Notes: generated from the sequence alone by a model not told the origin. 64,000 nucleotides of DNA from Patescibacteria group bacterium (GCA_050953885.1 JBMNNJ010000002.1:124140-188139); one strand, 5' to 3'. Shown: positions 1,626 through 44,826, numbered from the stretch's first letter. Program-made: numbers and translations.

Positions 1626-3374
1626 TTATTTTTCTTTGCCTAAACCTTGATTAGAATTAAAAAACTCGTAAGTAACAAAAAGTTCTTCCTGATAATAATT
1701 ATGGCTTCTTAAAAAGCCCCCGGGGAAAAACGTCTCGACTTTTTTTAAATCGTCAAGCCTTTCGGGAAGAAAAATAAAAATATTCTTCCCTCCCTGATTC
1801 TTTACTTCCGGCAAAAGGTCATCAATCTCATCACTTTTTACATCCCTAACTTGGGCTTGGGGAGCCAGATATTCCCAAACAGGAACGCTTCGCCAACCCA
1901 TTCTTGAAGAATTTAAAAAGTAAAATTTTGTTTCCGGAGAAAAGGAGGCGGTATAATAGCCTGCTATTGTGGCGACTTTAGTATTGGTATCAATCGCCTT
2001 TACCCAAACGACATCAAGAAAGTAAGCCTTCAAATTAAAAAACATAAAAGCCGCTATTATTAAAGTTAAAATTATTTTGGAGAAAATAACACTTTGGTTA
2101 AACCTTAAAAACCGACTGAAGTGAACTATTCCCAAAGCGGTAACGATCATTATTACCGGAATAATGCTTAAAAGCCGATGGGTAAAATTCAAATCAGCTA
2201 AAATTGCGCTGTTAAAAGTGAGAACGGTAAGAATCCAAAGAAGCAAAAAATTACTCTCCTTTTTTTTAATTTTTAGCAATAAAGAAACCGCTCCCAAAAT
2301 AAAAAAAACATTAAAGGGAAAGGACAAAAAGGGACCACCGTAATGGTAATGAAAATCAAGAGGATAATAAACTAACGATCCCAAAGAACGACTAAGATTA
2401 AAGGGAAGTATTTCTAAAAATTCTCCCGGCTTGAGGCTTAAAAAAAGCGGCTTGCCGGCGGTGCCGGTATTAAAAATCTCGCCAAAACGGGTAAGAAAAA
2501 CAACCAAAGAAGGGCCTATCCCTAAAAAAAGACCCGCTAAAAAATAACCAATTTTTAAGCCCAAAAGAGGCCGCGAACGGTGAAAAGCCAAAAGCATCCA
2601 AATTAAAAAATAAATTGCCGTCAATAATAAAAACGCTCTGATTCCCTGGTAGAAATGAAAAGCCAATCCCATCGCTATTCCTAAAAAAAGCGGCGAGCGC
2701 TTTTCTTTTAAAGAATTCAACAATAAGATTGCCAACAAAGAAGACCAAAAAGAATCAAAAAGAGGCAAAAACTCGCTCCGGCTAAAATGAAGATGAACAT
2801 GATAAACGGCCATTAAAAGCGCCGCCGTTCTCCCCACCGGCGCCCCAAAACACTTTTTAGCCAAAAAATAGGTTAAGACCACTGTTAAAACTCCAAAAAA
2901 GGCCGCCCAAAAACGAATTGCCAAAACAGAATGGCCAAACAAAAGATGAGGAAGAGAAGAAAAAGCAAAAAATAAATTCGGGATGCCATAAACCCCATAG
3001 CCAAAGAAATCCTTTATTTCTCCTCTTAAGAATGCCTCGGGGAGAAATCCCGCGTCTCGTGTTTCGTCTCCCGACAAAAGAGGAATTTTTTCTAAATAAA
3101 AAAATCTCAAAAATGCCGAAAGAAAAACAAGAACCATTAAAAATAAAAGCTCGTTTCTATTAAAAAAACTTTTTTTCTCTTTTCTAAAAAAACCAAAAAA
3201 CAAAGGTATTATTGGCGTTAATATTGCCAAAAGCCACAAGGCCAATGCCCACCAGCGACAGGAAAAATCTTTATCAAGAGCATAAAGCCCCATCGCCAGA
3301 AGATTCAAAATTAAAGCCAGAATTAGAAAAAAAGGCGATGTTGTCTTTTTGTTTGTTTTTAAATACTTGTTCAT
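1626..3374 (-). CDS. GT39/GT83-family (ArnT/PMT-like) membrane glycosyltransferase
   Basis: 582 aa, ~12 TM. N-terminal region LLSGDETRDAGF…GYGVYGIPNLFFAFSS is typical of PMT_2 / ArnT-type lipid-linked sugar transferases. Confidence 0.6.
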   Translation of the reverse strand: MNKYLKTNKKTTSPFFLILALILNLLAMGLYALDKDFSCRWWALALWLLAILTPIIPLFFGFFRKEKKSFFNRNELLFLMVLVFLSAFLRFFYLEKIPLLSGDETRDAGFLPEAFLRGEIKDFFGYGVYGIPNLFFAFSSLPHLLFGHSVLAIRFWAAFFGVLTVVLTYFLAKKCFGAPVGRTAALLMAVYHVHLHFSRSEFLPLFDSFWSSLLAILLLNSLKEKRSPLFLGIAMGLAFHFYQGIRAFLLLTAIYFLIWMLLAFHRSRPLLGLKIGYFLAGLFLGIGPSLVVFLTRFGEIFNTGTAGKPLFLSLKPGEFLEILPFNLSRSLGSLVYYPLDFHYHYGGPFLSFPFNVFFILGAVSLLLKIKKKESNFLLLWILTVLTFNSAILADLNFTHRLLSIIPVIMIVTALGIVHFSRFLRFNQSVIFSKIILTLIIAAFMFFNLKAYFLDVVWVKAIDTNTKVATIAGYYTASFSPETKFYFLNSSRMGWRSVPVWEYLAPQAQVRDVKSDEIDDLLPEVKNQGGKNIFIFLPERLDDLKKVETFFPGGFLRSHNYYQEELFVTYEFFNSNQGLGKEK

Positions 3375-4201
3375 TTCTGCTTAGAAACGATCATGATTAA
3401 GTTTAAATACCTTTTTCCTCCAATCGCGCGGTTATTTATTTTTTCAAAGAAAGCGCTTCCCTTCAAAAGACCGTTGCTAAAAAAATTAGTCCCTTTTCCA
3501 CTTTTAAAGCGGTTAAGACTGGAAAACCATCCTTTTTCCACTAAATTTTTACCTAAGGCGTAAAAAAGAAAATGAGAAAAAGGGAAACAAAAAGAGGTTG
3601 TCTGCCGGCATTTTTCTACTTTTAAGCCCGCCCTTCTTACTTTTTTTGCCAATTCTTCATCGCTATAAAGCCGCCGGTGATCCGCCCAAATCCCCGCCAG
3701 CCACCAAACACGGCTGGGCAAATGAGCATGAAAGGCCCTTTCTAAAAAGAAATTTAGCGGATCCCAAAAGAAAGGATAATTTTTAGCCGGAACGGTAATA
3801 ATCGCTTTCCCTTCCCAAGATAAAACCCGATAAATTTCTTTTATCGCTTTTTCATCGTCTTCAAGATGCTCAAGAATTTCGCTGGCAATAATAAAGTCAA
3901 AAGCGTTATCTTTTAGGGGAAGCTTGGTAATATCTGCCTTAAGGTAAGCAACATTATCCGCCTGAACATAATTTCGAGCTTTTTTAAGATAACCACTATT
4001 TTTATCAACTCCTAAAATTTTTGCTTCGGGCAAAAGTTTTCCGGCCGCTTTCAGATAAAAACCCCGTCCGCAACCAAGATCCAAAATTTTTTTAGGCCGC
4101 AACAAAGAAAGGTTTTCTAAAATTATTCTTGCCCTTAAACGAAAAGCATAATCAACCTCGCCAGCCAAAATTTTCTTAATTGCCGAAGAATAATTTTTCA
4201 T
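3371..4201 (-). CDS. Class I SAM-dependent methyltransferase
   Basis: Motif I LDLGCGRGFY, the acidic motif VDKNS, and DFIIASEILEHL (Methyltransf_11-like). Confidence 0.75.
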   Translation of the reverse strand: MKNYSSAIKKILAGEVDYAFRLRARIILENLSLLRPKKILDLGCGRGFYLKAAGKLLPEAKILGVDKNSGYLKKARNYVQADNVAYLKADITKLPLKDNAFDFIIASEILEHLEDDEKAIKEIYRVLSWEGKAIITVPAKNYPFFWDPLNFFLERAFHAHLPSRVWWLAGIWADHRRLYSDEELAKKVRRAGLKVEKCRQTTSFCFPFSHFLFYALGKNLVEKGWFSSLNRFKSGKGTNFFSNGLLKGSAFFEKINNRAIGGKRYLNLIMIVSKQK

Positions 4202-6659: not shown

Positions 6660-6895
6660 AAAATTTAACCGCCTCCTTTTGGAGTAGCGCCATTTCCACC
6701 AGAGGCGGATAAATATTGCGCGCCAGTCCATTCGCTCATTCGCATCTATTCGTTTCCCATTCGTGTTTCCGGCGCGGGCTAAAGCCCGCTACTCCATTTT
6801 TTGGAATAGCGCACTTTAGTGCGCGCCAACAATGAAACAATGAAACAATGAAACAATTTATCACTTTAGCAGTTTAACAATCCAGCATTATGGTT
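6660..6895 (+). repeat. Composite intergenic repeat: large inverted repeat (GGAGTAGCGC…GCGCTACTCC), ATTCG-rich 48-bp element (6728-6770), and CAATGAAA x3.7 tandem with a TTTAACAAT motif
   Basis: The same composite element, in the same part order, recurs at 57640-57840. The ATTCG element alone has 8 copies in the window. Confidence 0.7.
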
Positions 6896-6908: not shown

Positions 6909-9008
6909 GTGCTGGCAAATGACTTTTTAAGCATTTTCTATTGGTGGTTTATTCTTTTTGGCCTCGGCATTGTTTTTCTGCCCCTGACAGCGAAAATTTT
7001 TGCCCGCTTTTACGATCGCGGCTATCTTTTTGCCAAAGTTTTGGGGTTGGGTATTTTGAGCTACTTCGTTTGGCTTTTTGCCCACCTGAAACTTATTCCT
7101 TTCACTCAAGTTTCTCTTCTGGCCGTTTTTGGAGGAACGGCCGTTATTTCGGCTATTTTTTTAGGCAGGAGAAAATCCCTTAAAAAGAATTTGGCCGGGA
7201 AAAACCTCAAATTAATCTTTTTGGGCGAGGAGTTAATTTTTTTTCTTGCTCTTCTTTTTTGGTGCTTTATCCGCGGTCATAACCCGGAAATCCAATCGTT
7301 GGAGAAATTTATGGATTATGGATTTTTAAATAGCATCCTGCGGAGCCGCTTTTTCCCCCCCGCTGATATGTGGTTTGCCGGCGAGGCGATTAATTATTAC
7401 TACTACGGCCATTATTTAGCCGCTTTTTTAACCAAACTTTCCGGCCTTGACTCCGCCGTTACCTACAACTTAATGATCGCCACCCTATTTGCCTTCACCT
7501 TTGCCCTTACTTTTTCCCTCACCAGCAATCTTTGCTTTTTCGTTCAAAAAAAACCGTCAAAGTCTAAAGGATCACAGCGAGCAACTATTATTTTTGCCGG
7601 TCTTCTTTCCGCTTTTTTAATCTGCTTTGCCAGCAATCTCCACACCCCTTACTATGTTCTAAAAAACGGCGCCCAGAAATACTGGTATCCCGACGCCACC
7701 CGTTATATTGGCTATAACCCGCCAACCAATGACAAAACAATCCATGAATTTCCCTCCTATTCTTTTATCGTCGCCGATCTTCATGGCCATGTTTCCGACC
7801 TTCCCTTTGTTTTCACCTTTCTTGCTCTCAGTCTTAGCCTTTTCTTAAATTTAAAAGATAAAAAAAGGGGGGCTTTAGTTTTGCCTTTTGCCTTTTGCGT
7901 TTTGAGTTTGTCTTTAATGTATATGACCAATGCCTGGGATTTCCCTATTTACCTGCTTTTATTAGGAATAACTCTTTTGGGGACAAACTTAATTCTTTTT
8001 TTCAAAACTAAAAAAACTCCCCCAAAATTCTCCCAATTTCCTCTGCTTTGGCCAATAGTTAAAACCGCCCTGCCTCTTTTGGGCGTTGTTATTCTTTGGT
8101 TTCTCTTCACCCTCCCTTTTAACCTGAACTTTACCCAAATTCCCCAAGGAATTGGCTTAGTCCACACCCACACCCCCATCTTCCAATTTTTTATCCTTTG
8201 GGGGGCGCTGCTTTTTTTCTCTCTTGCTTTTGCCATTTTCTTCTTTAAAAATCCTGATAAAAAGCCAGTTGATTATTTTGTTTCTTTTATGCTCCTAACC
8301 GCCTTTATCCTTCTTTTAATCCCCGAGGTAATTTATGTAAAGGATATCTATGGCGCCGATTATTATCGGGCGAACACGATGTTTAAATTTACTTATCAGG
8401 CTTATGTTTTGATGACCGTCGCGGTGGGTTTTATTATTTTTCGCCTCTTAAAGGCAATTTCCCAAAAAGCAGTTAAAATCTCCTTGGGAGCTCTTTTTTT
8501 CTTGCTTGTTTCTCTTCTTCTTTTCTATCCTTCCTTTTCTCTTCCCGGCTATTATGGAAAAATCGGCACCAAGAATTACCAAGGCCTTTACGGTTTAAAT
8601 TTTCTGGCGAAAAGCTACCCGGAAGATTATCAGGCAATTTTATGGCTTAAAGAAAATGTGAGCGGCCAGCCGGTAACTCTGGAAGCTCCGGGCGACAGCT
8701 ACACCAACTATAACCGCGTTTCCGCTTTTACCGGCCTGCCTACCATTCAGGGTTGGCTGGTTCACGAATGGCTCTGGCGAGGTGGTTATGACGAGCCGGC
8801 AAAGCGCGCCGCCGAGGTCGAAAAAGTTTACCAAAACGGCTCGTTTGTAGAGGCCAAAGAAATTTTAAACCGCTACCGGGTTGAATATATTTTCTTTGGC
8901 GCCTTGGAAAAAGAAAAATATCCCCAAGCCTCCTCCAAGCGCTTAGAGCAATTAGGCCAGCCGATTTACCAAGCCGGGGAAACGGTGGTTTATAAGATAG
9001 AAAGATAA
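6909..9008 (+). CDS. DUF2298 / Chlor_Arch_YYY-family integral membrane protein (glycosylation-associated)
   Basis: 699 aa, many TM segments, AINYYYYGHY motif, and a C-terminal soluble domain with GWLVHEWLWRGG. Confidence 0.6.
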   Translation: MLANDFLSIFYWWFILFGLGIVFLPLTAKIFARFYDRGYLFAKVLGLGILSYFVWLFAHLKLIPFTQVSLLAVFGGTAVISAIFLGRRKSLKKNLAGKNLKLIFLGEELIFFLALLFWCFIRGHNPEIQSLEKFMDYGFLNSILRSRFFPPADMWFAGEAINYYYYGHYLAAFLTKLSGLDSAVTYNLMIATLFAFTFALTFSLTSNLCFFVQKKPSKSKGSQRATIIFAGLLSAFLICFASNLHTPYYVLKNGAQKYWYPDATRYIGYNPPTNDKTIHEFPSYSFIVADLHGHVSDLPFVFTFLALSLSLFLNLKDKKRGALVLPFAFCVLSLSLMYMTNAWDFPIYLLLLGITLLGTNLILFFKTKKTPPKFSQFPLLWPIVKTALPLLGVVILWFLFTLPFNLNFTQIPQGIGLVHTHTPIFQFFILWGALLFFSLAFAIFFFKNPDKKPVDYFVSFMLLTAFILLLIPEVIYVKDIYGADYYRANTMFKFTYQAYVLMTVAVGFIIFRLLKAISQKAVKISLGALFFLLVSLLLFYPSFSLPGYYGKIGTKNYQGLYGLNFLAKSYPEDYQAILWLKENVSGQPVTLEAPGDSYTNYNRVSAFTGLPTIQGWLVHEWLWRGGYDEPAKRAAEVEKVYQNGSFVEAKEILNRYRVEYIFFGALEKEKYPQASSKRLEQLGQPIYQAGETVVYKIER

Positions 9009-9020: not shown

Positions 9021-9236
9021 ACGCGAATTAACGCGAAAAATAAACTCAAATGTTAAATCGCAAAACTCAAAACTACAACTTAAAACTCAAATCTGAAAAA
9101 CACTTTTAAGTTCTAAGAAAGATTTAAGATTTGACATGTAGTTTTGCCATTTGCCATTTGCGTTTTGAGTTTATTTATTGTCTTTGAACTTTGATTTAGG
9201 TTTTGATTTTTGCGCTTTGCTCTTTGAGTTTGTCTG
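9021..9236. repeat. Long AT-rich imperfect palindromic element (AAAACTCAAA… / …TTTGAGTTTT family)
   Basis: The left arm is rich in AAAACTCAAAACT and the right arm is its reverse complement, centred near ACATGTAGTTTTG. Paralogous elements lie at 22552, 28585, 35040, 39290, 52236, 61010 and 62396. Confidence 0.7.
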
Positions 9237-9310
9237 TCACCTATAATAATTTAACCATTAAACATCCTTTATCAGAATTATAATCAACTGATATCATTTA
9301 TAATATTATT

Positions 9311-11108: not shown

Positions 11109-11705
11109 ATGGAGATTCTCTCTTTCAAGCTAGGTCCCTTGGAAACTAACGCCTATCTTGTCTTCTGCCCAAAAACACGGGCCGGCTTAATTATTGACCC
11201 AGCCGATGAGGCTAATTTTCTAAGCGAAAAAATTTTGAGAGAAAAAATTAAACCGCTTGCCATTGTTGCCACCCATGGCCATTTTGATCACCTTCTAGCC
11301 GCTAACGAACTCCAGCTGGCTTTTGACATTCCTTTTTTAATTCATCAAAACGACCAAAAAGTTCTTTCCACCATGCAAAAATCCGCCTCTTGGCATCTTA
11401 GGAGAAAAATGAGCGAGGAGCCGCCAAAAAAATTAAGTTTTCTAAAAGAAGGAGAGGAAATTTGCTTCGGTAAGGAATCGCTAACCGTGATTGAACTTCC
11501 CGGGCACACGCCCGGCAGTATTGGCCTTTATAACTTTTCTCAAAAAATTCTCTTCAGTGGCGACACCATTTTTAAAGATGGGGTGGGGAGAGCTGACTTT
11601 TTCTACAGTTCACCGGAAAATTTAGCGTCCTCGCTTCAAAAGATAAAAGAAAAATTTAGCGGTTTTATGATTTTCCCCGGCCATGGCGAAAGCTTCCGGC
11701 TTTAA
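11109..11705 (+). CDS. MBL-fold metallo-hydrolase (glyoxalase II-like)
   Basis: HGHFDHL metal-binding motif and GHTPGS. Confidence 0.7.
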   Translation: MEILSFKLGPLETNAYLVFCPKTRAGLIIDPADEANFLSEKILREKIKPLAIVATHGHFDHLLAANELQLAFDIPFLIHQNDQKVLSTMQKSASWHLRRKMSEEPPKKLSFLKEGEEICFGKESLTVIELPGHTPGSIGLYNFSQKILFSGDTIFKDGVGRADFFYSSPENLASSLQKIKEKFSGFMIFPGHGESFRL

Positions 11706-12101: not shown

Positions 12102-13121
12102 TTGATGCTCGTTAAACCTGTTTCCTCTTCGCAAAAAGAAGACTTTGACCGCTTGGCCACCCATCCCCTCCAGTCATGGGCGTGGGGAGAATTTCGCCAA
12201 AAAATGGGCCAAAAAGTGGCCCGCTTTGGGATCTTTGAAAGCCAGAAAATGGTCGGTTCCTTTCAGCTTTTCTTCCACCATCTCCCTCATCTTTCTTATA
12301 CCGTAGGCTATTTTCCTAAAGGACCAATGCCTACCCCGTTAATAATAAAAACTCTTAAAAAAGTAGGCCAAGAAAACAAAGCCATTTTTATTAAACTGGA
12401 ACCAAATATCCAAAAATCCGAAACCCGATCCGCCAGTAGGCGGACGAAATCCGAAATAAAAAAGTTAGGGCTTATAAAAGGCAAGCCGCTTTTTACCCGC
12501 CACACCATGATTATTAACTTAGAAAAAAGCGAAGAAGAACTAATGGCCGGTTTTGCTTCAAAAACCCGCTATAATATCCGCCTCGCCCAAAAAAGAGGAG
12601 TAAAAATCGTTGAAGATAATTCCCAAAAAGGGTTTGAACAGTACTGGCAATTGATGGAAGAAACCACTAAAAGACAAAAATTTTACGCCCATAACAAGGC
12701 CTACCACCAGCTGATGTGGCAAGAAATGAGCCGCGCCGGCATCGCCCACCTTTTAAAAGCAGTTTACCAAAAAGAAACTCTGGCCGCTTGGATTCTTTTT
12801 GCCTTTAACGGCGTTCTTTATTATCCTTATGGGGCTTCAACGCGGCGCCATCAGGAAGTAATGGCCTCAAATTTAATGATGTGGGAGGCAATTCGCTTGG
12901 GAAAAAGATTGGGTTGCAAAAAGTTTGATTTATGGGGAACCCCGGGACCCGATCCAAAACCCGATGACCCCTGGTTTGGTTTTCACCGTTTCAAGATGGG
13001 CTACCGGCCGGAAATTGTTGAATTTATCGGCACTTACGATTTAGTCCTCCGCCCTGTTTTCTATCAATTTTATCTTTGGGCTGACAAAGTTCGCTGGCAA
13101 TTTTTGCGCCTTAAAGCCTAA
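12102..13121 (+). CDS. FemAB-family aminoacyltransferase-like protein (peptidoglycan interpeptide bridge formation family)
   Basis: 339 aa. KTRYNIRLAQKRGVKIVE and overall FemAB/GNAT-fold resemblance; family assignment made by eye. Confidence 0.5.
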   Translation: MMLVKPVSSSQKEDFDRLATHPLQSWAWGEFRQKMGQKVARFGIFESQKMVGSFQLFFHHLPHLSYTVGYFPKGPMPTPLIIKTLKKVGQENKAIFIKLEPNIQKSETRSASRRTKSEIKKLGLIKGKPLFTRHTMIINLEKSEEELMAGFASKTRYNIRLAQKRGVKIVEDNSQKGFEQYWQLMEETTKRQKFYAHNKAYHQLMWQEMSRAGIAHLLKAVYQKETLAAWILFAFNGVLYYPYGASTRRHQEVMASNLMMWEAIRLGKRLGCKKFDLWGTPGPDPKPDDPWFGFHRFKMGYRPEIVEFIGTYDLVLRPVFYQFYLWADKVRWQFLRLKA

Positions 13122-14190
13122 CTATCTCCCCCTGCCAACCCTGTCGAGCCTCGGTGGCGCTCACCAGCACTTGATTTCCCTCAAGTTCTTTAATCACCAG
13201 TTCCTCAAAGTTTTCGTCTAATTCGGAAAAAATATCATCTAAAAGCAGCACCGGCTTTTCTTTTTTCACCTTTTCCCAAAAAGCAAGTTGACCTAATTTA
13301 AGCCATAAAACCCCCAGCCGTTGTTCTCCCCGGGAGCCAAAAAGGGCTAAATCCCGCTCGTTTTTTAAAACCAAGAAATTATCGCGGTGCGGACCCACCA
13401 AAGTTTTTCCCAGTAAAATTTCCAACTCTTTTTTCTCTTCCAAGCGCGCCGGTGAGATAACATTTTTTTCGTAAACCGCTCTCATCTTTCCCCAAGGGGA
13501 TTCTTTCTGATTTAAAAACTCTAAAAATTCTTCTCTTTTTTGGGCAATTTTCTCCCCATTTTCCACCAAAAGATGATCATAGAAAAATAACGATTTGGGG
13601 GTGGTTCTTTTCTCCCGAATTTGTTCCAAAATCTTGTTGCGCGCCCGAAGGCCCCGCTGGTAAGAAGAAAGACAACGATAATATTCCCGATCAGCCGAAG
13701 AAAGCACCTCATCTAAAAAATTGCGCCTCAACGCGGGCGAATCAATAATCACTTCCAAATCCTCCGGCCGAAAAATAACCGCCAAAAAATTACCCAAAAA
13801 ATTGCCTTTAGTCTTGGCCACACCGTTAACCAGCCACCGACTTAAAACCGTCCTCTGGCCTCCCACCTGACCGTTGGTTAAAACTATCTGCAGCTGTCGC
13901 TTTTCCTCGCCACCAACCCTTGCCTCAAGATGAGCCACTTCCTGCCCAAAATGAACCATTTCCTCAATTTTCTTAGCCCGAAAACTTTGCCCGGAAGAAA
14001 AAAGATAAATTGCTTCCAGAAGATTTGTTTTGCCCGCCGTATTTGGACCAACAATTAAATTCTTCCCCTCCGCAAAAGAAAATTCTCTCTCCTCAAAGTT
14101 GCGAAAATTTTTTAACTTAATTTTTTCTAAAATCATTCTTATATTATATACGATTATACTTAAGCACGCTAATAGCGCCCTCTTAATCAC
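13111..14190 (-). CDS. recF: DNA replication and repair protein RecF
   Basis: N-terminus LEKIKLKNFRNF, Walker A GPNTAGKTNLLEAI, and C-terminal LLLDDIFSELD. Confidence 0.85.
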   Translation of the reverse strand: MIKRALLACLSIIVYNIRMILEKIKLKNFRNFEEREFSFAEGKNLIVGPNTAGKTNLLEAIYLFSSGQSFRAKKIEEMVHFGQEVAHLEARVGGEEKRQLQIVLTNGQVGGQRTVLSRWLVNGVAKTKGNFLGNFLAVIFRPEDLEVIIDSPALRRNFLDEVLSSADREYYRCLSSYQRGLRARNKILEQIREKRTTPKSLFFYDHLLVENGEKIAQKREEFLEFLNQKESPWGKMRAVYEKNVISPARLEEKKELEILLGKTLVGPHRDNFLVLKNERDLALFGSRGEQRLGVLWLKLGQLAFWEKVKKEKPVLLLDDIFSELDENFEELVIKELEGNQVLVSATEARQGWQGEIVRL

Positions 14191-14403
14191 AAAATTGTCC
14201 GCTTACACAAGACATTAAAATTAATAATGCGGACGGGGCATAAATAAAGCGGCGCATTTTAAAGCGCGCCAATTCCAGCACAAACAGCCTGCCTGCCACA
14301 AGAGGAAAGTTTACTACCAGCAAACGGCAGAATAAATTGCATCTCAACCGCAAATAACAAAATAAGATAAATATAAGAATCAAAAGGAGGATGTCTCCAT
14401 AAT

Positions 14404-14482
14404 TTCTGAAATGCTTTAGATCATTTCAGAAATTACAAAAAGAGTGGAATTACTAGCAATTAAATGCTTTAGAGCATTTCGT
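14404..14482. promoter_or_regulatory. Two copies of the GAAATGCTTTA(A/G)A(G/T)CATTTC palindrome, in the recF upstream region and downstream of the YerC-like gene
   Basis: 14404-14431 TTCTGAAATGCTTTAGATCATTTCAGAA and 14463-14482 AAATGCTTTAGAGCATTTCG. Confidence 0.4.
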
Positions 14483-14567
14483 AATATAAAGATTTTTTAA
14501 TGCTATAAGACGCTATTAATACTTAAGAGTATCGGAGGCAAAGGGTTTGGGTCTTAAAAGAAAGAAG

Positions 14568-15032
14568 TTATTTTTTCTCTTTAGGAGGAAGAATGCCTAA
14601 TTCTTCTAAAATCCGGTCAACTTGAGGATGAGAAACCGGCCGGAAACGGTCGGCGGCCATCTTTTTATCAATTTTTTCCTGCCTTGCCTCCTCTTCTTGG
14701 GGGTAAATAAAAATTAAATAAATTGCCCTTGCCAATTCCAGTTGGGAAAAAAGCAACTGGTGAATTTTGCTAATGGTGTTAGAACTGGTATTAATTTCCT
14801 TCTCAATTTTCCGATAATCCTTGCCTGCTAACAATAGAATCGCTATTTGCAACCTTTTAGCCAGAATTTCTTTTTCCTGGGGGCTTAAAAAAATCTCCAA
14901 GAATAGTTGCTGCTCAAAAGAAGATTCCAGTGATTCTAAAAATAGGCCAAAGTTCGCTAAAATTTTTTCTTTTATTGTTCGCGGAAGCGGTTCTTTAGGC
15001 AGGCGACTCATTATAATTCCATAATAAAACAA
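14568..15032 (-). CDS. TrpR-related YerC/YecD-family DNA-binding protein
   Basis: LSPQEKEILAKRLQIAILLLAGKDYRKIEKEINTSSNTISKI matches the YerC/YecD helix-turn-helix region. Confidence 0.6.
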   Translation of the reverse strand: MFYYGIIMSRLPKEPLPRTIKEKILANFGLFLESLESSFEQQLFLEIFLSPQEKEILAKRLQIAILLLAGKDYRKIEKEINTSSNTISKIHQLLFSQLELARAIYLIFIYPQEEEARQEKIDKKMAADRFRPVSHPQVDRILEELGILPPKEKK

Positions 15033-15092
15033 AAACCTTTTCCCTTACAACTACTAAATTATCCCAAGCTAATTAGTTATTAGAAAAAAACC

Positions 15093-15114
15093 CGAAATGC
15101 TTTAAAGCATTTCG
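15093..15114. promoter_or_regulatory. Perfect 22-bp palindrome CGAAATGCTTTAAAGCATTTCG, ~60 bp upstream of the YerC/TrpR-like gene (candidate operator)
   Basis: The palindrome is perfect. It belongs to the same motif family as 14404, 14463 and 57585. Confidence 0.4.
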
Positions 15115-15179
15115 GAATATAAAAATTTAAAAAACACTAACCCAAAGGGCCAAAATATTATTTTCCCAACGGTTTTGCT

Positions 15180-16043
15180 TTATTTTTGACAACGGGGGCA
15201 AAAAAAGGTACCGCGACCGCCTAAATTAATTCGCTGAATTGTTCCCCTTCCACAACGCGGGCAGGATTTACCTGCCTGCTGATAAACCCTTAAGTAACGC
15301 TGATAACCGCCCGGCGTGGCATCGGGCTTAACGTAAGCATCATCGGCGGCACTGGTTCCCCCCGCCTTAATTGCCGCTTTAAGAATTTTAACAATCGCTT
15401 GATAAAGCTTACCAATTTCTTGACTCGTCAGGCTATTAGCCGGCCGACGGGGGTCAATGCCGGCCTCAAAAAGAGCCTCGTTGGCATAAATATTTCCCAA
15501 GCCGGCAATCTTTTTCTGATCCATTAAGACAATTTTTATCGCCCGGCGAGTTTTTGAAAAAATATCTTGGAGATATTCAAGAGTAAACTTTTCTTCCAAA
15601 GGTTCCGGCCCGTATTCTTCTTCTTTCTGCTCCAATTTCTGGTCAGGAATTACTTTTATCCAGCCAAACTTGCGCAAATCATTAAAAAAAAGCTTGCTTC
15701 CATCGGCAAATTCAATAATAATCCGGGTGGTTTTCCCCGGCAGTTTATTATCAGCAAAGGGAAGAGAAGAAGGCAAAACCAGTTCCTCTTTTAAACAATG
15801 ATCGGCAAAAAAAATAATCTGGCCGGTAAGTTTTAGATGGATTAGAAGAGTTAAGTTATTATCCAAAACAAACCCTAAAGTTTTGGCCCGCCGAAAAACT
15901 TTTTCCACTTTGGCGCCGATAATCTGCTTTGGATCGCCAATGAATTGCTTTTTCTCCAAAATTTTAACCGCGACAACTTTTTTGCCTACTAAACTTTTAG
16001 AAAGATAGCGCCTGATGGTTTCGACTTCCGGTAGTTCGGGCAT
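15180..16043 (-). CDS. mutM: Formamidopyrimidine-DNA glycosylase (Fpg/MutM)
   Basis: N-terminal MPELPEVE (catalytic Pro2/Glu3) and a C-terminal zinc finger CPRCG…CPRC. Confidence 0.85.
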   Translation of the reverse strand: MPELPEVETIRRYLSKSLVGKKVVAVKILEKKQFIGDPKQIIGAKVEKVFRRAKTLGFVLDNNLTLLIHLKLTGQIIFFADHCLKEELVLPSSLPFADNKLPGKTTRIIIEFADGSKLFFNDLRKFGWIKVIPDQKLEQKEEEYGPEPLEEKFTLEYLQDIFSKTRRAIKIVLMDQKKIAGLGNIYANEALFEAGIDPRRPANSLTSQEIGKLYQAIVKILKAAIKAGGTSAADDAYVKPDATPGGYQRYLRVYQQAGKSCPRCGRGTIQRINLGGRGTFFCPRCQK

Positions 16044-16084: not shown

Positions 16085-16115
16085 GTTGCAGGCTTGTAGG
16101 GGCGTATTGCATACG
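16085..16115. repeat. GC-rich hairpin GGCTTGTAGGGGCGTATTGCATACGCCCG (second copy, inverted, at 50521-50556)
   Basis: 8-bp arms GGGCGTAT/ATACGCCC; it sits in the mutM upstream region. Confidence 0.55.
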
Positions 16116-16188
16116 CCCGCAACAATATAGCAATTTAACAATTTAACAATATAGCAATGAATTCCACCGCTTTTTATTTCAAAAAAAA

Positions 16189-18209: not shown

Positions 18210-20164
18210 TAATTTTTACTAACTTTTTTCTTGCCCATTAAGGCTTCAAATTCCTCTTGATCCAAAGTTTCTTTTTCTAAAAGCGCCTTAGCCAGCTCAT
18301 CAAGCTTAATGCGGTTTTTGGTTAAGATCTTTTTGGCCTCTTGGTATGCCTCATCAACCAATTTTTTCACCCTCTTGTCTACCTCCGCCTGCATTTCTTG
18401 AGAAAGATTCTGGTCCTGCGGCCAAAAATAACCAAACTCTGTTTCCACCGGCTGGGGGCCAAAAGAAATCGGCCCCAAGTCGCTCATCCCCAAGTCAACC
18501 ACCATTTTACGCGCTAAAGAGGTCGCTTTATCAATATCATCGGCGGCGCCGGTGGTAATTTCTTTAAAAACCACTTCCTCAGCCGCCCGACCCCCTAACA
18601 TCACTGCCATTTGCTCCAAAAGCCGACTTTTGGTTTCCTGCCCCCGGTCATGAGCGGGAGGTAAGAAAGTATGGCCTAAGGTTAATCCCCGGGCAACAAT
18701 GGAAATCCTCCCTACTGGATCCATATGGGGTAAGAAGTGCGCCACCAAAGCATGGCCGCTTTCATGATAAGCGGCCATTTCTTTTTCCTCTTTTGACTGC
18801 AAACGCTTGCGCTGGGGGCCTAATTTTACCTTGGTGGCCGCTTCTTCAATGTCCGCCATCTGGATCTCCATTTTCCCATCCCGCGCCGCCAAAATAGCCG
18901 CCTCATTAAGCATGTTTTCTAAATCCGCCCCGGAAAATCCCACCGTTTGTTTGGCCACCTGCTCCCAATTAACACTCTTGGCAAAGGGTTTGCCGCGGGC
19001 ATGCACTTTCAAAATTGCCTTTCGCCCCTCAATATCGGGCATGTCCAAAACCACCCGCCGGTCAAAACGTCCCGGCCGCATCAGCGCCGGGTCTAAAAGA
19101 TCAGGGCGGTTAGTGGCTCCAATTACCACCACATTATCATTGGGAGCGAAACCGTCCATTTCCACCAGCATTTGGTTAAGAGTTTGCTCCCGCTCGTCAT
19201 GGCTACTGAAACCACCTAAAGAACGCGCCCGGCCAATGCTTTCAATTTCGTCAATAAAGATAATTGAAGGAGCATTCTTCTTGGCCGTTTCAAATAAATC
19301 TCGCATCCGCGCCGACCCTACTCCCACCAGCATCTCCATAAACTCCGACCCGGCCATCGAGAAAAAAGGCACGTTTGCCTCGCCGGCCACCGCCCGCGCT
19401 AAAAGCGTTTTTCCCGTTCCCGGCGGTCCTACCAAGAGCACTCCTTTTGGTGTCCGCGCCCCCAAGCGACGATACTTTTGGGGGTTTTTCAAAAAATCCA
19501 CCACTTCTTTCAACTCCTGCTTGGCCTCATCCACCCCCGCCACATCGGCAAAGGTAGCCTTTTGCTTACCTTTAATAAAGGGCTTGGCCCGTGATTTGCC
19601 AAAAGAAAAAATTGAGTCCTGAGCTCCTTTTGCTTGTCTAAAAGAAAAATAGAAAAAAATACCAATTAAAATCAAAGGAACAAAGGTGATAAAAATCTCC
19701 CACCAAACTTGAGAAAAAGACTGGTCCACTACCTTAATGTCCAAACTCGAAGGGTCAATCGCTTCTTCCTGAAGAATATTCACTAAGCTTTGTTGAGGCT
19801 CTTTATTGGCAAGGGCTACCTTACCATCGTTATAAATTAGGCTTATCTGATTGCCCGCTACCTCTACCGATTTAACCTTCCCCTCTCTAATATCGGCAAT
19901 TGCCTGCGAAAGGGGAATTTCCAAATTGCTTCTCGCCCAACCAGAAAGAGCAATAAAAAACCAAACCACCAAAAAAATTCCCAAAATTCCGGTGAGAATT
20001 TTCTTGGGGCTAAGTTTCACCTCCACTTTTTTAGCCCCCTCAGGAAGCTTAATTTCCGGCTTCCCTGCTTCCTCTTTGGTATTATTTTTTGAACCTCTTT
20101 TTTGAGGCTTTTTAAAAATCGCCATAATGTTTTTATTATGATTAAAGGAAAAATGGAATAGCAA
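18209..20164 (-). CDS. ftsH: ATP-dependent zinc metalloprotease FtsH
   Basis: AAA Walker [12 protein letters not shown], second region of homology, HESGHALV zinc site, N-terminal TM. The likely true start is the internal MAIFKK. Confidence 0.9.
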
Positions 20165-20180
20165 ACTTTAGCCCGCGCCT

Positions 20181-20229
20181 ATCATTCGCTCATTCGTGTT
20201 AATTCGTTTCCAATTCGCGCTAATTCGCG
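20181..20229 (+). repeat. ATTCG-rich 48-bp repeat element (copy b)
   Basis: ATCATTCGCTCATTCGTGTTAATTCGTTTCCAATTCGCGCTAATTCGCG, followed by TTAACAGTTTAACAC. Confidence 0.7.
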
Positions 20230-20262
20230 TCTTTTAACAGTTTAACACTTTAATTTTATGAT

Positions 20263-21261
20263 TTAATGATTTTTTATCTTTCTTAACCCCATTTTTTCTT
20301 TTACCTCATCCATCGTTTTCTTGGCCAAGGGAAGAGCGTAATCTCGCCCTTCTTTCAAGATCGCTGCCACGGCTTCAGGATTTTCCTCAAAATAATGTCG
20401 CCTTTGCCGAAAAGGTTCAAGCTCCTGATAAATCGCCTCCGCCAGCTCACTCTTAAGAGAGGCATATTTTATCCCTTTTCCTAAATATTCCTTTTCATAT
20501 TCTTCCCGCCGTTTTTTTCCTAAAAAAAGAGCGGCCATGGCCAGCAAATTAGCCACCCCGCCTTCTTTGGGTACTTCTTTCCCTTTCCCCAAATCAGTCG
20601 GCACCCGGGCTATTTTTCGGTTAATCTCCTCCTTGCTGTCAGCTAAGAAAATGGCGCTGCCAGCTACTGACTTACTCATCTTCCCCTCTCCTGTCAACGA
20701 AGGAACAATCTCGCCTACAATTGCATAACGTTGGGGTTCGGGAAAAGTTTTCCCAAACATCTGGTTAAACCGCCGGGCAATTTCCCGGCTCACCTCCAAA
20801 TGAGGCTCCTGATCTTTACCCACCGGTACCAACTCGGCTTTGTAAAGCAAAATGTCAGCTGCCATTAAAACCGGGTAATAAAGCAAGCCTAAATTAATAT
20901 AACCCGGCTGTTCTTTCTTTTTATCTTTATAAGTAGGCAGCTGCTCCAAACGGGAAACAGGAAAAATAGTCCCCAAAAGATAAGCAAGTTCCACATGATA
21001 GGGAACTTCGGACTGAATCATCAAATGGGCCTTCTTGGGGTCAATTCCTGCCCCTAAATAATCAAGCACTACTTGATAAATATCCTCCTGCAGGGTTGCC
21101 GGCTGATAAGGCGAGGTAATGGTATGAAGATCAACGACCGAAAAAATACAATCGTATTTATCCTGTAGGTCTACCATTCCCTTCATCGCTCCCAAATAAT
21201 TCCCCAAATGAAGCCGGCCGGTAGCTCTGATCCCTGAAAAAACCCGTTTTTTTTCTCCCAT
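20263..21261 (-). CDS. trpS: Tryptophan--tRNA ligase
   Basis: 332 aa class I aaRS with an HLGN (HIGH-like) motif and KMSKS. Confidence 0.75.
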   Translation of the reverse strand: MGEKKRVFSGIRATGRLHLGNYLGAMKGMVDLQDKYDCIFSVVDLHTITSPYQPATLQEDIYQVVLDYLGAGIDPKKAHLMIQSEVPYHVELAYLLGTIFPVSRLEQLPTYKDKKKEQPGYINLGLLYYPVLMAADILLYKAELVPVGKDQEPHLEVSREIARRFNQMFGKTFPEPQRYAIVGEIVPSLTGEGKMSKSVAGSAIFLADSKEEINRKIARVPTDLGKGKEVPKEGGVANLLAMAALFLGKKRREEYEKEYLGKGIKYASLKSELAEAIYQELEPFRQRRHYFEENPEAVAAILKEGRDYALPLAKKTMDEVKEKMGLRKIKNH

Positions 21262-21292
21262 TCCTTAATTATAACACCGAAGGAAAAGAAAG

Positions 21293-22540
21293 CTATGTGC
21301 GGTGTCCAGGACATGCTATACACTTCATGAGGTTTGGGTATGAGGAATATGTAAGAAGAGTGTTAAAATTGGTGGGTGTTAATTTTGAGAGTGTAGTAAA
21401 GGGGGTGAAAAAGCATGAGTCCTGGAATCCATGGAATCCGGATAGACTACAAGGAATTAAGAAAGATTAATCCAGAAGCAGCCAGACAAACAGTGATTGA
21501 GTATCTAAAGACTAATGGCCACAACATTGCTGATACCGCCAGGGTTTTTAGGGTCAACAGGACAGTGGTTTATGACATCTTGGCAAAAAGCAAAGAGGGC
21601 AATCTTAAAGACAGACCCAAGATACCAAAACACCAGCCCAACAAGACACCAGCCAAGACAGAAGGTAAAGTCATTAAGGCCAAGAACAAAACCCACCTGG
21701 GGCCAAAAAGATTATCACGCTACCTTGAGAAACATGAAGGGATTCTTGTTCCTCCAGGAACAATCAGGCACATTCTAAGGAGGAATAAAGACAGGCTTAC
21801 TTACAAACTAAAATCAAACAAGAGAAGAAAACAACCAAGGGAGTTTGTTGACTGGTATTCAGCTAAACCTTTTGAGATTGTCCAAATGGATATCAAATTC
21901 ATTAGGGATCAGAAAGCCCTGACTAAAAAGCAAATTATTCATCTTAACCAATATGATATTCCCAACTATCAATGGGGAGCCCTGGATGTTAACTCTAGGT
22001 TTAAACTAATTGCTTATTCCAAGGAAAAATCTTGGACTAATGGTTTGTGTTTTTACCTTTGGACTATTTCCTGGTTAAGGTCTCATGGGGTTAAATCAGA
22101 GATTGCCTTTACTGTTGATAATGGTGAGGAATTTGGGGGTAGATCCTGGTTGAAGGTCAAAGAGTTAAGAAAACTGATCAGGGGTTTTGGCTGTAGATTA
22201 ATCCAGAACCACAAAGGTCATCCTGAGGAGAATGCTCATTTGGAAAGAAGCCATAGAACCGATGACGAAGAGTTCTACATTCCCAGGGTCCTACAGATTA
22301 AGAGCAAAAAAGATCTCTTGAATGAGGCCCTGGGTTACATTTATTACTACAACAATGTCCGGGAACACTCATCCTTAGACTATCAAATACCCTACCAATA
22401 TCTGAAAATGCAATTACCAGAGATTGATGATAACATACGTTATGTACAACCGATTATCCTTGATGATGTCTCGGTAAAACTAGGCCCTTGGAGTGGATAC
22501 AATGTCTTGGCACATCACCGCTAAATTATTAAATGGCTAA
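21293..22540 (+). mobile_element. IS481-family-like insertion sequence (single DDE transposase); right boundary approximate
   Basis: The left end TGTGCGGTGTCCAGGA is shared with a truncated second copy at 25667. It encodes a 369-aa HTH + rve-type DDE transposase. Terminal inverted repeats were not resolved by eye. Confidence 0.6.
21415..22524 (+). CDS. DDE transposase (N-terminal HTH + integrase-core rve domain), IS481-like
   Basis: N-terminal HTH (IADTARVFRVNRTVVYDIL). The core has WGALDVN (D), TVDNGEEF (D) and HLERSHRTDDEEFY (E) in an rve-like arrangement. Confidence 0.7.
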   Translation: MSPGIHGIRIDYKELRKINPEAARQTVIEYLKTNGHNIADTARVFRVNRTVVYDILAKSKEGNLKDRPKIPKHQPNKTPAKTEGKVIKAKNKTHLGPKRLSRYLEKHEGILVPPGTIRHILRRNKDRLTYKLKSNKRRKQPREFVDWYSAKPFEIVQMDIKFIRDQKALTKKQIIHLNQYDIPNYQWGALDVNSRFKLIAYSKEKSWTNGLCFYLWTISWLRSHGVKSEIAFTVDNGEEFGGRSWLKVKELRKLIRGFGCRLIQNHKGHPEENAHLERSHRTDDEEFYIPRVLQIKSKKDLLNEALGYIYYYNNVREHSSLDYQIPYQYLKMQLPEIDDNIRYVQPIILDDVSVKLGPWSGYNVLAHHR

Positions 22541-22551: not shown

Positions 22552-22672
22552 AAAGTCAAAAGTTAAAATTTAAAAGTCAAAATTACAAGTAAAAACCTAA
22601 AAGTGAAGCAAAAAAACTTTTAACTTTTAAATTTTGAATTTTGAATTTTGACTTTTGAATTATATACTTAAT
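22552..22672. repeat. AT-rich palindromic element (AAAAGTCAAAAGTTAAAATTT… / …AAATTTTGAATTTTGACTTTT)
   Basis: Left and right arms are reverse complements. It lies between the IS right end and the tRNA-Met 3' end. Confidence 0.65.
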
Positions 22673-25365: not shown

Positions 25366-25666
25366 GTATCCTCCTTAATAAATATTAAACAAAATCCCCA
25401 TGTGGCTTATGACTAAGTTTCAAATAACAGATAATTTCATTATAATAAAGGTCAATGCACCAGATACAGTTATGATTACAAAAATTCACCAGATCAAGTT
25501 CAACCATTACCGGAATAATGTCCTTTCCCTCCGCCAAATCAATAAATCTCTCAAGATGGTTTATATATTTATATGGGCTAAAAGTATCTAGCGTTTTTAT
25601 TGTAATAATGATTGCTAATACAGTGGTTTCTATTATAAACTATATTTACCGATATTCAATTGGGCT

Positions 25667-26035
25667 TTGTGCGGTGTCCAGGAGATGCGATACACTTCAT
25701 GAGGTTTGGGCATGAGGAACATGTAAGAAGAGTGTTAAAATTGGTGGGTGTTAATTTTGAGAGTGTAGTAAAGGGGGTGAAAAAGCATGAGTCCTGGAAT
25801 CCATGGAATCCGGATAGACGACAAGGAGTTAAAAGATTAATCCAGAAGCAGCCAGACAAACAGTGATTGAGTATCTAAAGACTATAATGGCCACAACATT
25901 GCTGATACCGCCAGGGTTTTTAGGGTCAACAGGACAGTGGTTTATGACATCTTGGCAAAAAGCAAAGAGGGCAATCTTAAAGACAGACCCAAGATACCAA
26001 AACACCAGCCAAGACAGAAGATAAAGTCATTCGCA
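25667..26035 (+). pseudogene. Truncated, degenerate second copy of the IS481-like element (5' ~370 bp only)
   Basis: Near-identical to 21293-21665 with point changes, an in-frame TAA, a small insertion and a 15-bp deletion. It ends ~30 bp from the tRNA-Ile 3' end. Confidence 0.7.
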
Positions 26036-26064
26036 ATCTCGTGTTTACCTGCCCAGCGCACGGG

Positions 26065-26136
26065 TGCGCCTGCTTGGATTCGAACCAAGGACGTCTACTT
26101 TATAAGAGTAGCGCTCTACCACTGAGCTACAGGCGC
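26065..26136 (-). tRNA. tRNA-Ile (anticodon TAT; UAU reads AUA)
   Basis: Manual cloverleaf. Acceptor GCGCCTG/CAGGCGC, D-arm GCTC-AGTGGTA-GAGC, anticodon stem CTACT/AGTAG with loop CTTATAA, T-arm CTTGG-TTCGAAT-CCAAG, discriminator A. Confidence 0.75.
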
Positions 26137-26223
26137 AACGAAAGTTAAAAGTTTTTTAGATCGGACTTCTATCTGCTCTTTATTATACTTTATACTCTAT
26201 ACTTTATACACTACACATTAGAT

Positions 26224-28584: not shown

Positions 28585-28860
28585 CCGGCGGGCGGAGCAA
28601 AATTAAAAATCAGTAATTCGTAATATGTAATAAAAAAAGCGCAAAAAGCAAAACGCAAAGAGCAAAACCTAAATCAAAGTTCAAAAATATTTTTAATTTT
28701 TGGTTTTGGTTTTTGAGCTTGGTTTTGCATTTTACTCTTTGCACTTTAATCTTGTTTTCTCACGAGTTACTAACTTTTTACACTTTACTTTTGAATTTTG
28801 ACTTGTAATTTTGATTTAGGTTTTAATCTTTTCCGCCAGCTGGCGGATTGACTTTTCGTT
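28585..28860. repeat. AT-rich palindromic element plus GC palindrome CCGCCAGCTGGCGG (28833-28846)
   Basis: AAAGCAAAACGCAAAGAGCAAAACCTAAATCAAAG … CTTTGCACTTTAATC arms. It includes the TTGAGCTTGGTTTTGCATTTTA segment also found at 62402. Confidence 0.65.
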
Positions 28861-29261: not shown

Positions 29262-29417
29262 TATAGCAAAGATGGCGGAAAATTAGTTGTTGGAAAATGG
29301 TAATAGAAATTGGAAATTAGAAATTCCCCCGTCAGGGCGGGGGGTGAAATTAAGAAATTAAAAATTGGGGAAAAAATTTGTTTCATTATTGCGGGCGTAG
29401 GCAATGCGCCCTTGCCT

Positions 29418-29465
29418 CTCATTCGCTCATTCGCGTCCATTCGTTTCTCATTCGCGTTAATTCGC
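29418..29465 (+). repeat. ATTCG-rich 48-bp repeat element (copy c), ~65 bp upstream of the methyltransferase gene
   Basis: TCATTCGCTCATTCGCGTCCATTCGTTTCTCATTCGCGTTAATTCGCG, followed by AATTTAACAATTTAGC. Confidence 0.7.
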
Positions 29466-29528
29466 GTATTTTAGTAATTTAACAATTTAGCTCAAAAACT
29501 TTTTTTATGAGAAAATAGGAAAAAAGCA

Positions 29529-31378: not shown

Positions 31379-31384
31379 AGGTAT

Positions 31385-31432
31385 TTCATTCGCTCATTCG
31401 CGTCCATTCGTTTTTCATTCGCGTTAATTCGC
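31385..31432 (+). repeat. ATTCG-rich 48-bp repeat element (copy d)
   Basis: TTCATTCGCTCATTCGCGTCCATTCGTTTTTCATTCGCGTTAATTCGCG, followed by AGCAATTTAACCGTTTAA. Confidence 0.7.
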
Positions 31433-31469
31433 GTCTTTCAGCAATTTAACCGTTTAATAATTTATTTTT

Positions 31470-35039: not shown

Positions 35040-35235
35040 TATAATAAGATAAGCTCAAATGTTAAAACTCAAAACTCAAATCTACAACTCAAAACTTAAA
35101 ACTTGAAAGACAAAAACAGAATTACAATTTAGAAATACAAATATTAAGCCCTAAAGTTTTTTAGTTTTAAGTTTTAACATGTAGTTTTGAGATTTGCGTT
35201 TTGAGATTTGCGTTTATTTTTCGTGTTAATTCGTG
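35040..35235. repeat. AT-rich palindromic element in the divergent nrdJ / helicase intergenic region
   Basis: CAAATGTTAAAACTCAAAACTCAAATCTACAACTCAAAACTT … AACATGTAGTTTTGAGATTTGCGTTTTGAGATTTGCG, the same architecture as 9021-9236. Confidence 0.65.
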
Positions 35236-43453: not shown

Positions 43454-43469
43454 TTTAGCTATCTATTAA

Positions 43470-44747: not shown

Positions 44748-44826
44748 ATAACACCTATTTTAAAATTATCTAGGTTCTAAGCAATGTATTCTTATATATA
44801 TCACAATCAAAGTTATAAGTCAAATT

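Follow-up and report, generated by a model that had tools for sequence, protein, structure and literature searches.

Does the TrpR-like protein encoded on a contig of a Patescibacteria group bacterium recognise the palindromes that lie on either side of its own gene? The question was raised by a stretch of 64,000 nucleotides (GCA_050953885.1 JBMNNJ010000002.1:124140-188139; hereafter the window), in which a perfect palindrome is located upstream of a gene for a TrpR-family regulator and two related palindromes follow just downstream of it. Autoregulation of TrpR-family repressors through a palindromic operator is textbook knowledge. To our knowledge, transcriptional regulation remains almost entirely unexplored in the candidate phyla radiation (CPR)/Patescibacteria, which possess very few transcription factors and are hard to culture. 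A preliminary description of the window had suggested that the protein autoregulates and, in addition, controls a small regulon that includes recF. As outlined below, the palindromes are predicted to be operators of the adjacent regulator's own protein, a reading to which we assign a probability of about 0.7, and control of recF was not supported.

Related palindromes cluster at the TrpR-like gene

The upstream palindrome (A) has a core, CGAAATGCTTTAAAGCATTTCG at 15093-15114, that is perfect over 22 bp, as had been described before, and the perfect symmetry extends to 24 bp. A is the sole perfect palindrome with arms of at least 11 and no loop in the 64-kb window, and none was obtained in 100 composition-preserving block shuffles. 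A search of the window with GAAATGCTTTAAAGCATTTC, allowing up to three mismatches, resulted in four matches (A to D), compared to 0.02 expected, and a looser pattern search identified a fifth, variant palindrome (E; Table 1). Three of these five copies are located at the TrpR-like gene, the counts covering the 64-kb window. The lesser copies that had been placed at 14404-14431, 14463-14482 and 57585-57603 are the same objects as C, B and D, with coordinates two to four bases off.

The first downstream copy, B, matched A at 19 of 24 positions, which was above all 1570 background windows, and both share the minus-strand 5' flank TTTATATT(c/a)CG. B and C are separated by 53 bp from centre to centre and sit 633 and 686 bp from A. 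Palindrome A was found identically in contigs L001-L010, L014-L016 and L098, and copy D in L054 and L114. The motif scan of metagenome contigs also returned at least 115 chance matches from unrelated organisms; the relevant ones among the matches listed were L054, L098, L114, L126 and L133. A scan of viral contigs gave no match.

A lineage-specific palindrome hugs every family gene examined

To compare the locus with other members of the family, we analysed relatives from several lineages, among them a distant set of seven family members in six loci (L138-L143), which are 21-34% identical to the window protein. In all 10 further family gene instances examined (from Shapiro-, Levy-, Woese-, Curtissbacteria and others), a palindrome was present upstream, beside the gene. 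The genes of L138-L142 and both paralogues of L143 each possess their own palindrome of 22-30 bp at a distance of 0-12 bp from the start codon (Table 1). The Curtissbacteria locus L143 harbours two long TrpR-like paralogues 8 kb apart (2947-3381 and 11140-11580), with a different perfect 28-bp palindrome at each start. In the loci that were searched for further copies (L139, L140 and L141), the lineage-specific palindrome was absent elsewhere, and in the four loci L140-L143, which contain five of the genes, seven of the 15 long palindromes in 74.7 kb occurred within 130 bp of TrpR-like genes.

The same palindrome frequently recurs behind the gene. For 8 of 10 family genes, the window's included, a copy of the upstream palindrome is found within 150 bp past the stop codon and scored higher than every background window of the locus; in this comparison, the only equal-scoring background windows of L011 were those containing the upstream palindrome itself. 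Several of the upstream palindromes in turn coincide with sigma-70-type promoters. A consensus scan placed strong matches on two of them (TTGACA-18-TAAAAT, L139 9952-9981, and TTCACT-17-TATAAT, L143 11104-11132), and weaker arrangements that were not listed by the scan could be read by eye in L141 (TTGACA-17-TGTAAT) and at the first L143 paralogue (TTGACT-17-TAAAAC). Of the six upstream palindromes, four are situated between divergently transcribed genes; two of the downstream copies are found in convergent intergenic regions, and a clean U tract follows none of the downstream copies across the family. Thus, neither termination nor control of the next gene can serve as a general explanation.

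The core AATGnTTTAAAnCATT is common to the window, the Levybacteria locus L139 and the first paralogue of L143, and the free position n in it coincides with the one at which the window copies A-D differ from each other. Co-variation between recognition-helix residues and operator sequence was suggestive, although too few proteins were available to claim it.

The comparison of orthologous promoters that had been proposed in the preliminary description hence showed that the association of palindrome and gene is kept across relatives; a generic repeat with no positional association to the gene in related genomes, the alternative considered there, is not what was found, as the position is conserved. 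Such a pattern, in which the palindrome varies along with the regulator gene next to it, sits close to the start codon of this gene, coincides with its promoter and is not the same in two paralogues of one genome, is the usual signature of a cognate autoregulatory operator. The palindromes are therefore best explained as predicted operators of the adjacent TrpR-family protein, which would imply autoregulation; to this extent, the earlier proposal is supported by comparative genomics.

The downstream sites belong to the regulator gene and not to recF

Proteins with 76% identity to the window protein are encoded on contigs L011/L012/L017, from a Shapirobacteria metagenome-assembled genome, and on L013. 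The neighbouring genes differ on both sides, and the layout, one palindrome upstream and two downstream with the related core AAATACTACATAGTATTT, is present in both. As the recognition helix, TISKIHQ, is invariant across all eight close homologues, one specificity must cover both cores, leading to a clade consensus of AAATRCT-N4-AGYATTT with GAAATGCTTTAAAGCATTTC as the best copy. A protein-based GTDB scan returned, among the matches listed, only an already known Shapirobacteria contig.

A protein of 93% identity is encoded by a mosaic locus on L015 and L016. Upstream, this locus has the window-type fpg and an identical palindrome A; downstream, it has L011-type palindromes and a ThiI-like gene. 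Compared to the window, the 5' half of the gene and the upstream spacer are about 99% identical, the 3' half has diverged by about 13%, and the region that follows is wholly different. The spacer between fpg and the TrpR-like gene is more conserved (0-2 changes per 168 bp) than the 3' end of fpg (5-6 per 36-101 bp), but this would fit a recombination tract as well as selection and was not used as evidence.

The downstream sites accompany the regulator gene whatever follows and thus appear to belong to this gene rather than to recF. The inclusion of recF in a regulon, as previously suggested, therefore found no support: in relatives with a 93% identical protein and an identical upstream region recF is replaced by the ThiI-like gene, and in other lineages the downstream copies are located between convergent genes. 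In the window, the distance from C to the start of recF is 265 bp or more, and a terminator-like hairpin (14271..14250, minus strand; GGCGCGCTTTAAAATGCGCC, then a T-rich tail) lies between them. The spacer upstream of recF, which had been described as a 380-bp AT-rich region, measures 377 bp (GTG start, 14190) or 431 bp (ATG, 14136) and has a G+C content of 35% compared to 43% for the window. The 265 nt between C and recF do not contain a convincing open reading frame (ORF; 14250-14400 region, minus strand) and may represent a small RNA or a recF leader. No DnaA-box-like sequence was seen near recF on brief reading, with no further search for an oriC being made.

Copies D and E are possible additional targets and better candidates for this role than recF. 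E is close in sequence to the downstream operator candidate of the Woesebacteria homologue, ACTTAATTACTATATATTAATTAAGT. D is positioned in the middle of about 300 nt (57440-57740) of GC-rich (47%), hairpin-rich non-coding DNA between groEL and tRNA-Ser.

The adjacent gene encodes a long TrpR-like protein

The only TrpR-like gene within the window matched Pfam PF01371 (Trp_repressor) with 40.1 bits (cut-off 27, E = 4e-10, residues 25-87). Its initial classification as YerC/TrpR-like holds with regard to the TrpR family, based on PF01371 and the predicted fold, but not with regard to YerC/YecD, as the score for TIGR02531 (YerC/YecD; 27.8 bits) remained below the cut-off of 42.2. The NCBIfam cut-off for TrpR proper was also not reached. 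Translation more likely starts at ATG 15011, resulting in a protein of 147 aa, than at TTG 15032 (154 aa), which had been favoured earlier: the N-terminus MSRLPK agrees with all homologues, unlike that obtained from the TTG, and the 147-aa form was found identically on ten public contigs. From the end of A to this ATG the distance is 81 bp instead of the roughly 60 bp that had been given.

An AlphaFold2 model based on 40 homologues (pLDDT 90.6) showed the helices of the TrpR core (11-27, 31-41, 44-61, 66-73 and 77-89), the fourth and fifth forming the helix-turn-helix; these are followed by one of 32 residues (91-122) and a short terminal one. In a Foldseek search against the PDB, the first 37 matches were all TrpR or TrpR-like (probability 1.0, target-normalised TM-scores 0.64-0.81) and comprised E. 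coli TrpR and TrpR-like proteins of S. aureus, E. eligens and R. obeum. The tryptophan pocket of TrpR, formed by Arg54, Arg84, Gly85, Thr44 and Thr81 in E. coli numbering, is not present as such in the window protein. In the alignment, R53, S43 and T79 are conserved, and R53 and T79, which align with Arg54 and Thr81, are family-invariant; K82 replaces Arg84 and I83 replaces Gly85. With the latter two residues replaced, tryptophan is an unlikely ligand. In addition, no amino-acid biosynthesis genes, trp genes included, are located near the gene.

An exhaustive profile search identified 672 clusters of relatives at 50% identity, most of them 140-155 aa in length. Named relatives belong to Shapiro-, Levy-, Woese- and Curtissbacteria or 'Patescibacteria', and their usual database label is 'YerC/YecD family TrpR-related protein'. 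These relatives place the source of the window among the CPR bacteria, close to Candidatus Shapirobacteria, and the TrpR-like gene in a large branch of the TrpR family that consists of uncharacterised long forms.

Promoter arrangement in the window

The sigma-70-like candidate TTGTAA-18-TATTAT is the only consensus promoter that was found for the TrpR-like gene; in L011 and L013, a TTGTAG or TTGCAA -35 element with a -10 element can be read by eye at the same place relative to the ATG. The palindrome had been said to occupy the expected promoter position. This applies to the distant relatives, in which it overlaps the promoter, but not to the window, where A is located about 40 bp upstream of the -35 element. 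On the minus strand, TATATT occurs directly 5' of both A and B, but the -35 elements are poor and were not listed by the scan, so that a promoter overlapping either palindrome is no more than a possibility. An extended -10-like sequence on the plus strand after B, TGCTATAAG, which is shared with L133 (TGCTATAGG), was not adopted as it is without the conserved final T.

Alternative explanations

Several observations weigh against the palindromes being cognate operators. A does not overlap the best candidate promoter, its distance to the -35 element being that given above, and it bears every feature of an fpg terminator, which alone could account for a strong hairpin at this position. D and E are far from the TrpR-like gene. 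The spacings of the two downstream sites (53, 53, 53, 62, 62, 64, about 63 and 47 bp) range from 47 to 64 bp and do not correspond to whole helical turns; with such inconsistent spacings, helical phasing of the downstream pair was dropped as an argument. The mosaic locus implies a recombination breakpoint inside the TrpR-like gene near 14770, and the flanking repeats could partly reflect gene movement. Finally, L126 and L133 contain a homologue of the B-C pair including its spacer (about 110 bp), located in a convergent intergenic region; no TrpR-like gene was found near this module in these contigs of 1.4-4.7 kb, so the element is not exclusive to the gene. However, the module and the distant copies would also be compatible with a regulon.

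Four contigs (L035, L042, L082 and L136) with similar palindrome pairs 63 bp apart, all without a TrpR-like gene, were treated as unrelated; L035, the sole one examined, was without long ORFs. Upstream of the two-palindrome module of L126, an IS3-type helix-turn-helix ORF (249-599, minus strand) is inserted in a gene whose L133 orthologue is without the insertion. Short stretches of the non-coding DNA adjoining the palindromes of L133 and L126 match intergenic regions of the window near 6686-6724 and 20151-20179.

Recurrence of the module is the main support for an explanation in which the palindromes are mobile or recombinogenic repeats, of the repetitive extragenic palindrome (REP) or miniature inverted-repeat transposable element (MITE) type, or boundary repeats of a small gene cassette, so that they came to flank the gene by insertion or exchange. 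The differing neighbourhoods in close relatives and the breakpoint within the mosaic locus would fit as well, as would the upstream and downstream copies, which form direct repeats of up to 29 bp, and the abundance of other intergenic repeat families in this genome. However, no transposase or recombinase was linked to the palindrome, its lineage-specific form occurred only beside the TrpR-like gene in the relatives' loci searched, which span 13-20 kb each, and the upstream copies coincide with promoters. Furthermore, the family looks vertically diversified, with 21-34% identity between orders and one or two copies per locus instead of many identical ones. A REP or MITE would be expected in many scattered intergenic copies; in the 64 kb, five copies were counted, three of them at the TrpR-like gene. 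We consider this explanation improbable.

The palindromes could also act solely as RNA hairpins, with A serving fpg as intrinsic terminator, B and C serving as 3'-end or stabiliser hairpins of the TrpR-like mRNA, and the similarity of the palindromes resulting from local duplication. On the minus (sense) strand, A forms an 11-bp stem with a 4-nt loop (-14.8 kcal/mol, z = -5.7), then G and U7, 66 nt past the fpg stop codon; the scan listed it as terminator-like, and A with its U7 probably does terminate fpg transcription. The equivalent palindrome in L013 likewise comes after a co-directional gene, with T6 following it, and the hairpin of C is strong (-17.5 kcal/mol). However, among the window copies only A has the features of an intrinsic terminator; B, C, D and E, like nearly all family copies, lack a U tract, and as hairpins B is weak (-5.7 kcal/mol) and D negligible (-0.6 to -3.3 kcal/mol). 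The sequence AAATGCTTTAGAnCATTT is kept in both B and D all the same, suggesting that sequence rather than fold is recognised. In addition, the upstream palindromes of the distant members abut or overlap the start codon and the -10 element and could be at most half transcribed, many family copies, such as the four of six between divergent genes, occur where no transcript needs to end, and conservation of a core sequence across orders is not required of a terminator. A role as hairpins alone is thus very unlikely.

The least probable account is that the palindromes are operators of another DNA-binding protein encoded elsewhere, with the TrpR-like gene as merely one target, as could be argued from D, E and the L126/L133 module, none of which adjoins a TrpR-like gene, and from a view confined to 64 kb of the genome, but the palindrome varies by lineage together with the adjacent gene, even between the L143 paralogues, which is the signature of a cognate pair and not of a shared outside regulator.

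Predicted mode of action

If the palindromes are operators of the TrpR-like protein, a dimer would bind each palindrome of about 20 bp through the helix-turn-helix. With site A upstream and B and C just downstream, the protein would bracket its own gene and regulate its own synthesis. In the distant family members, where the upstream site overlaps the -10 element and the transcription start, simple promoter occlusion would suffice. In the window, with A about 40 bp upstream of the promoter, we infer that repression would require the sites before and after the gene to cooperate, either through looping of the DNA or through a 3'-end roadblock. The sequence features, the membership of the protein in the TrpR family and the conserved association of gene and palindrome are thus shown; DNA binding itself, any ligand, the direction of regulation and a function of the downstream sites are putative. 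In the window's clade, A probably doubles as fpg terminator in the RNA and as distal operator in the DNA, and D and E would be further target sites.

A wider generalisation can be offered as speculation that we hold to be rather doubtful. The long (about 147 aa) TrpR-like proteins of Microgenomates/CPR might be distinct, self-contained autoregulatory units with an operator before the start and another after the stop, in which the C-terminal helix joins two DNA-bound dimers, the 450-bp gene is looped or a roadblock replaces the terminator, and rapid change of the palindrome between lineages, and even between paralogues of one genome, insulates the units from each other.

Comparison with known systems

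The closest analogy is E. coli TrpR, with which the window protein shares the PF01371 family and the predicted fold (top Foldseek matches 2oz9, 1trr and 1tro, probability 1.0). E. coli TrpR acts on palindromic operators of about 20 bp (trpO, aroH and trpR's own promoter) and controls its own gene, both of which are putative for the window. In contrast to E. coli TrpR (108 aa), the window protein of 147 aa has the added helix 91-122 and a basic tail, I83 and K82 in place of Gly85 and Arg84, and no trp genes nearby. Its consensus GAAATGCTTTAAAGCATTTC has half-sites closer together than the E. coli operator TGTAcTnGTnnACnAgTACA, and a second operator copy is positioned past the stop codon.

By database labels, the closest named subfamily is HisR (B. 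subtilis YerC), the histidine repressor of Firmicutes, and the HisR-type structures 3kor, 3g1c and 3frw were among the best fold matches. TrpR and HisR bind 20-bp palindromes with lineage-specific consensus sequences; the family is often autoregulatory, and in roughly half of the genomes analysed for HisR, autoregulation was predicted (PMC9413887). However, HisR proteins are shorter than 100 aa, their consensus cacTTTAnnnnnnTAAAgtg differs from that of the window (PMC9413887), their sites precede his biosynthesis or transport genes, and no operator copy past the stop codon has been reported for them. With 147 aa, a different operator, and fpg and recF instead of his genes as neighbours, the window protein does not have the characteristics of HisR.

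Cognate sites on both sides of a regulated unit are a feature of lambda CI (OL and OR around cI-rexAB) and the gal and deo repressors, where they cooperate by DNA looping. The likeness is one of layout alone: the proteins come from unrelated families, looping and oligomerisation are putative for the CPR protein, and here the second site follows 0-90 bp past the stop codon of a 450-bp gene.

Further features of the window

Coordinates of the palindromes, the neighbouring genes and the repeat families are collected in Table 1. A second palindrome family, TCCGCCAGCTGGCGGA, comprises five copies, one of which is located at the 5' end of groEL, and may represent the site of another regulator or a hairpin family. 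The window also harbours intergenic arrays of the type CATTCGnn with a period of 8 nt (e.g., CATTCGCTCATTCGCGTCCATTCGTTTCTCATTCGCG), which frequently occur directly upstream of a TGCTATAAT-type promoter, for example ahead of tRNA-Ser and ftsH; the GC-rich stretch around D is flanked by two inverted copies. Two further intergenic families with the same period, (AACAATGA)n and (TTTTGAnn)n, are common to related Shapirobacteria contigs (blastn of L011 and L013 against the window).

Two direct duplications were observed. The copies of one, 300 nt in length, are 99% identical and 1360 bp apart; those of the other, about 350 nt, are 96-100% identical and separated by 4372 bp. The second pair adjoins the genes for tRNA-Met and for a tRNA-Ile (26062-26137) whose anticodon, TAT, is rare. 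Rfam at gathering thresholds gave no match in the whole window, and no credible match was obtained at E up to 10 for the two intergenic regions and the surroundings of copy D or at E up to 1 for the L133 module. A search for tmRNA found none.

Table 1. Palindromes, genes and repeats of the window, and palindromes at distant family members (L138-L143).
Feature	Position	Strand	Sequence or match	Remarks
Palindrome A	15094-15113 (match); 15092-15115 (perfect)		CCGAAATGCTTTAAAGCATTTCGG	0 mismatches to GAAATGCTTTAAAGCATTTC; perfect 24-bp palindrome
Palindrome B	14461-14480		TAAATGCTTTAGAGCATTTC	2 mismatches; first downstream copy, 86 bp past the TrpR-like stop codon
Palindrome C	14408-14427 (match); 14400-14435 (span)		TAATTTCTGAAATGCTTTAGATCATTTCAGAAATTA	2 mismatches; arms to 14 bp; second downstream copy
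Copy D	57581-57600		TAAATGCTTTAGAACATTTC	3 mismatches; solitary, between groEL and tRNA-Ser in non-coding DNA of 489 bp
Copy E	54971-54996		ACTAAATTACTACATAGTAATTTAGT	Variant palindrome; between divergent 112-aa gene and 114-aa membrane protein gene
TrpR-family regulator gene	14568..15011	minus		147 aa, long form, C-terminal helical extension
Promoter candidate, TrpR-like gene	15021..15050	minus	TTGTAA-18-TATTAT	Sigma-70-like; 9/12 consensus matches; about 10 nt before ATG
T7 run	15084..15090	minus		Directly 3' of hairpin A; putative terminator tail for fpg transcripts
fpg/mutM	15180..16043	minus	H2TH, Fapy_DNA_glyco, zf-FPG	Upstream neighbour
recF	13111..14136	minus	SMC_N	Downstream neighbour
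L138, upstream			GCTATCATGATATATATTATGTAAGT	Touches ATG
L138, downstream			ACTATCATGATATATATTATGATAGT	7-8 nt past stop
L139 (Levybacteria), upstream			TACTAAAATGATTTAAATCATTAAAGCA	
L139, downstream			Identical 28 nt	
L140 (Woesebacteria), upstream			ATACTTAAATACTATATAGTATTTAAGTAT	Overlaps ATG
L140, downstream			ACTTAATTACTATATATTAATTAAGT	2-3 nt past stop
L141, upstream			ATGTTGTAATGTTGTACAACAATACAACAT	Ahead of ribosome-binding site; no downstream copy
L142, upstream			GTTATCATGTTCCGTTACATGATAAC	
L142, downstream				25/26 positions matching
L143 (Curtissbacteria), first paralogue, upstream			TGTGTTAATGTTTTAAAACATTAACACA	
L143, first paralogue, downstream			TAATGTATTAAAACATTA	
L143, second paralogue, upstream			TACTTCACTGTTTCGAAACAGTGAAGTA	Downstream half-site only
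Second palindrome family	28832-28847, 39462-39477, 53457-53472, 59527-59547, 61274-61289		TCCGCCAGCTGGCGGA	5 copies
CATTCGnn arrays	6728-6767, 20171-20267, 29408-29504, 31375-31471, 55449-55488, 57385-57440 (inverted), 57737-57833			8-nt period
(AACAATGA)n and (TTTTGAnn)n, first group	6820-6879, 16113-16164, 57794-57845			8-nt period
(AACAATGA)n and (TTTTGAnn)n, further	7875-7912, 9157-9244, 22607-22672, 28686-28831, 35153-35227, 52240-52277, 61029-61066, 62385-62447			8-nt period
Direct duplication	43466-43765 / 44826-45125			300 nt
Direct duplication	21292-21638 / 25664-26010			About 350 nt

Significance for CPR bacteria and the TrpR family

The long-form CPR branch of TrpR and its conserved operator-gene-operator layout appear to be undescribed in the searchable literature. 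With a binding site apparently located beside each member, and twice, the family of 672 clusters would provide ready-made pairs of protein and operator for in-vitro work. It would also represent a naturally diversified set of TrpR-type specificities and offer a route to predicting small CPR regulons, here represented by D and E. An operator copy past the stop codon is unusual for the TrpR family. Without a function for this copy, what remains would be ordinary autoregulation; a functional copy may provide these bacteria with compact looping that encloses the gene or with termination by a roadblock.

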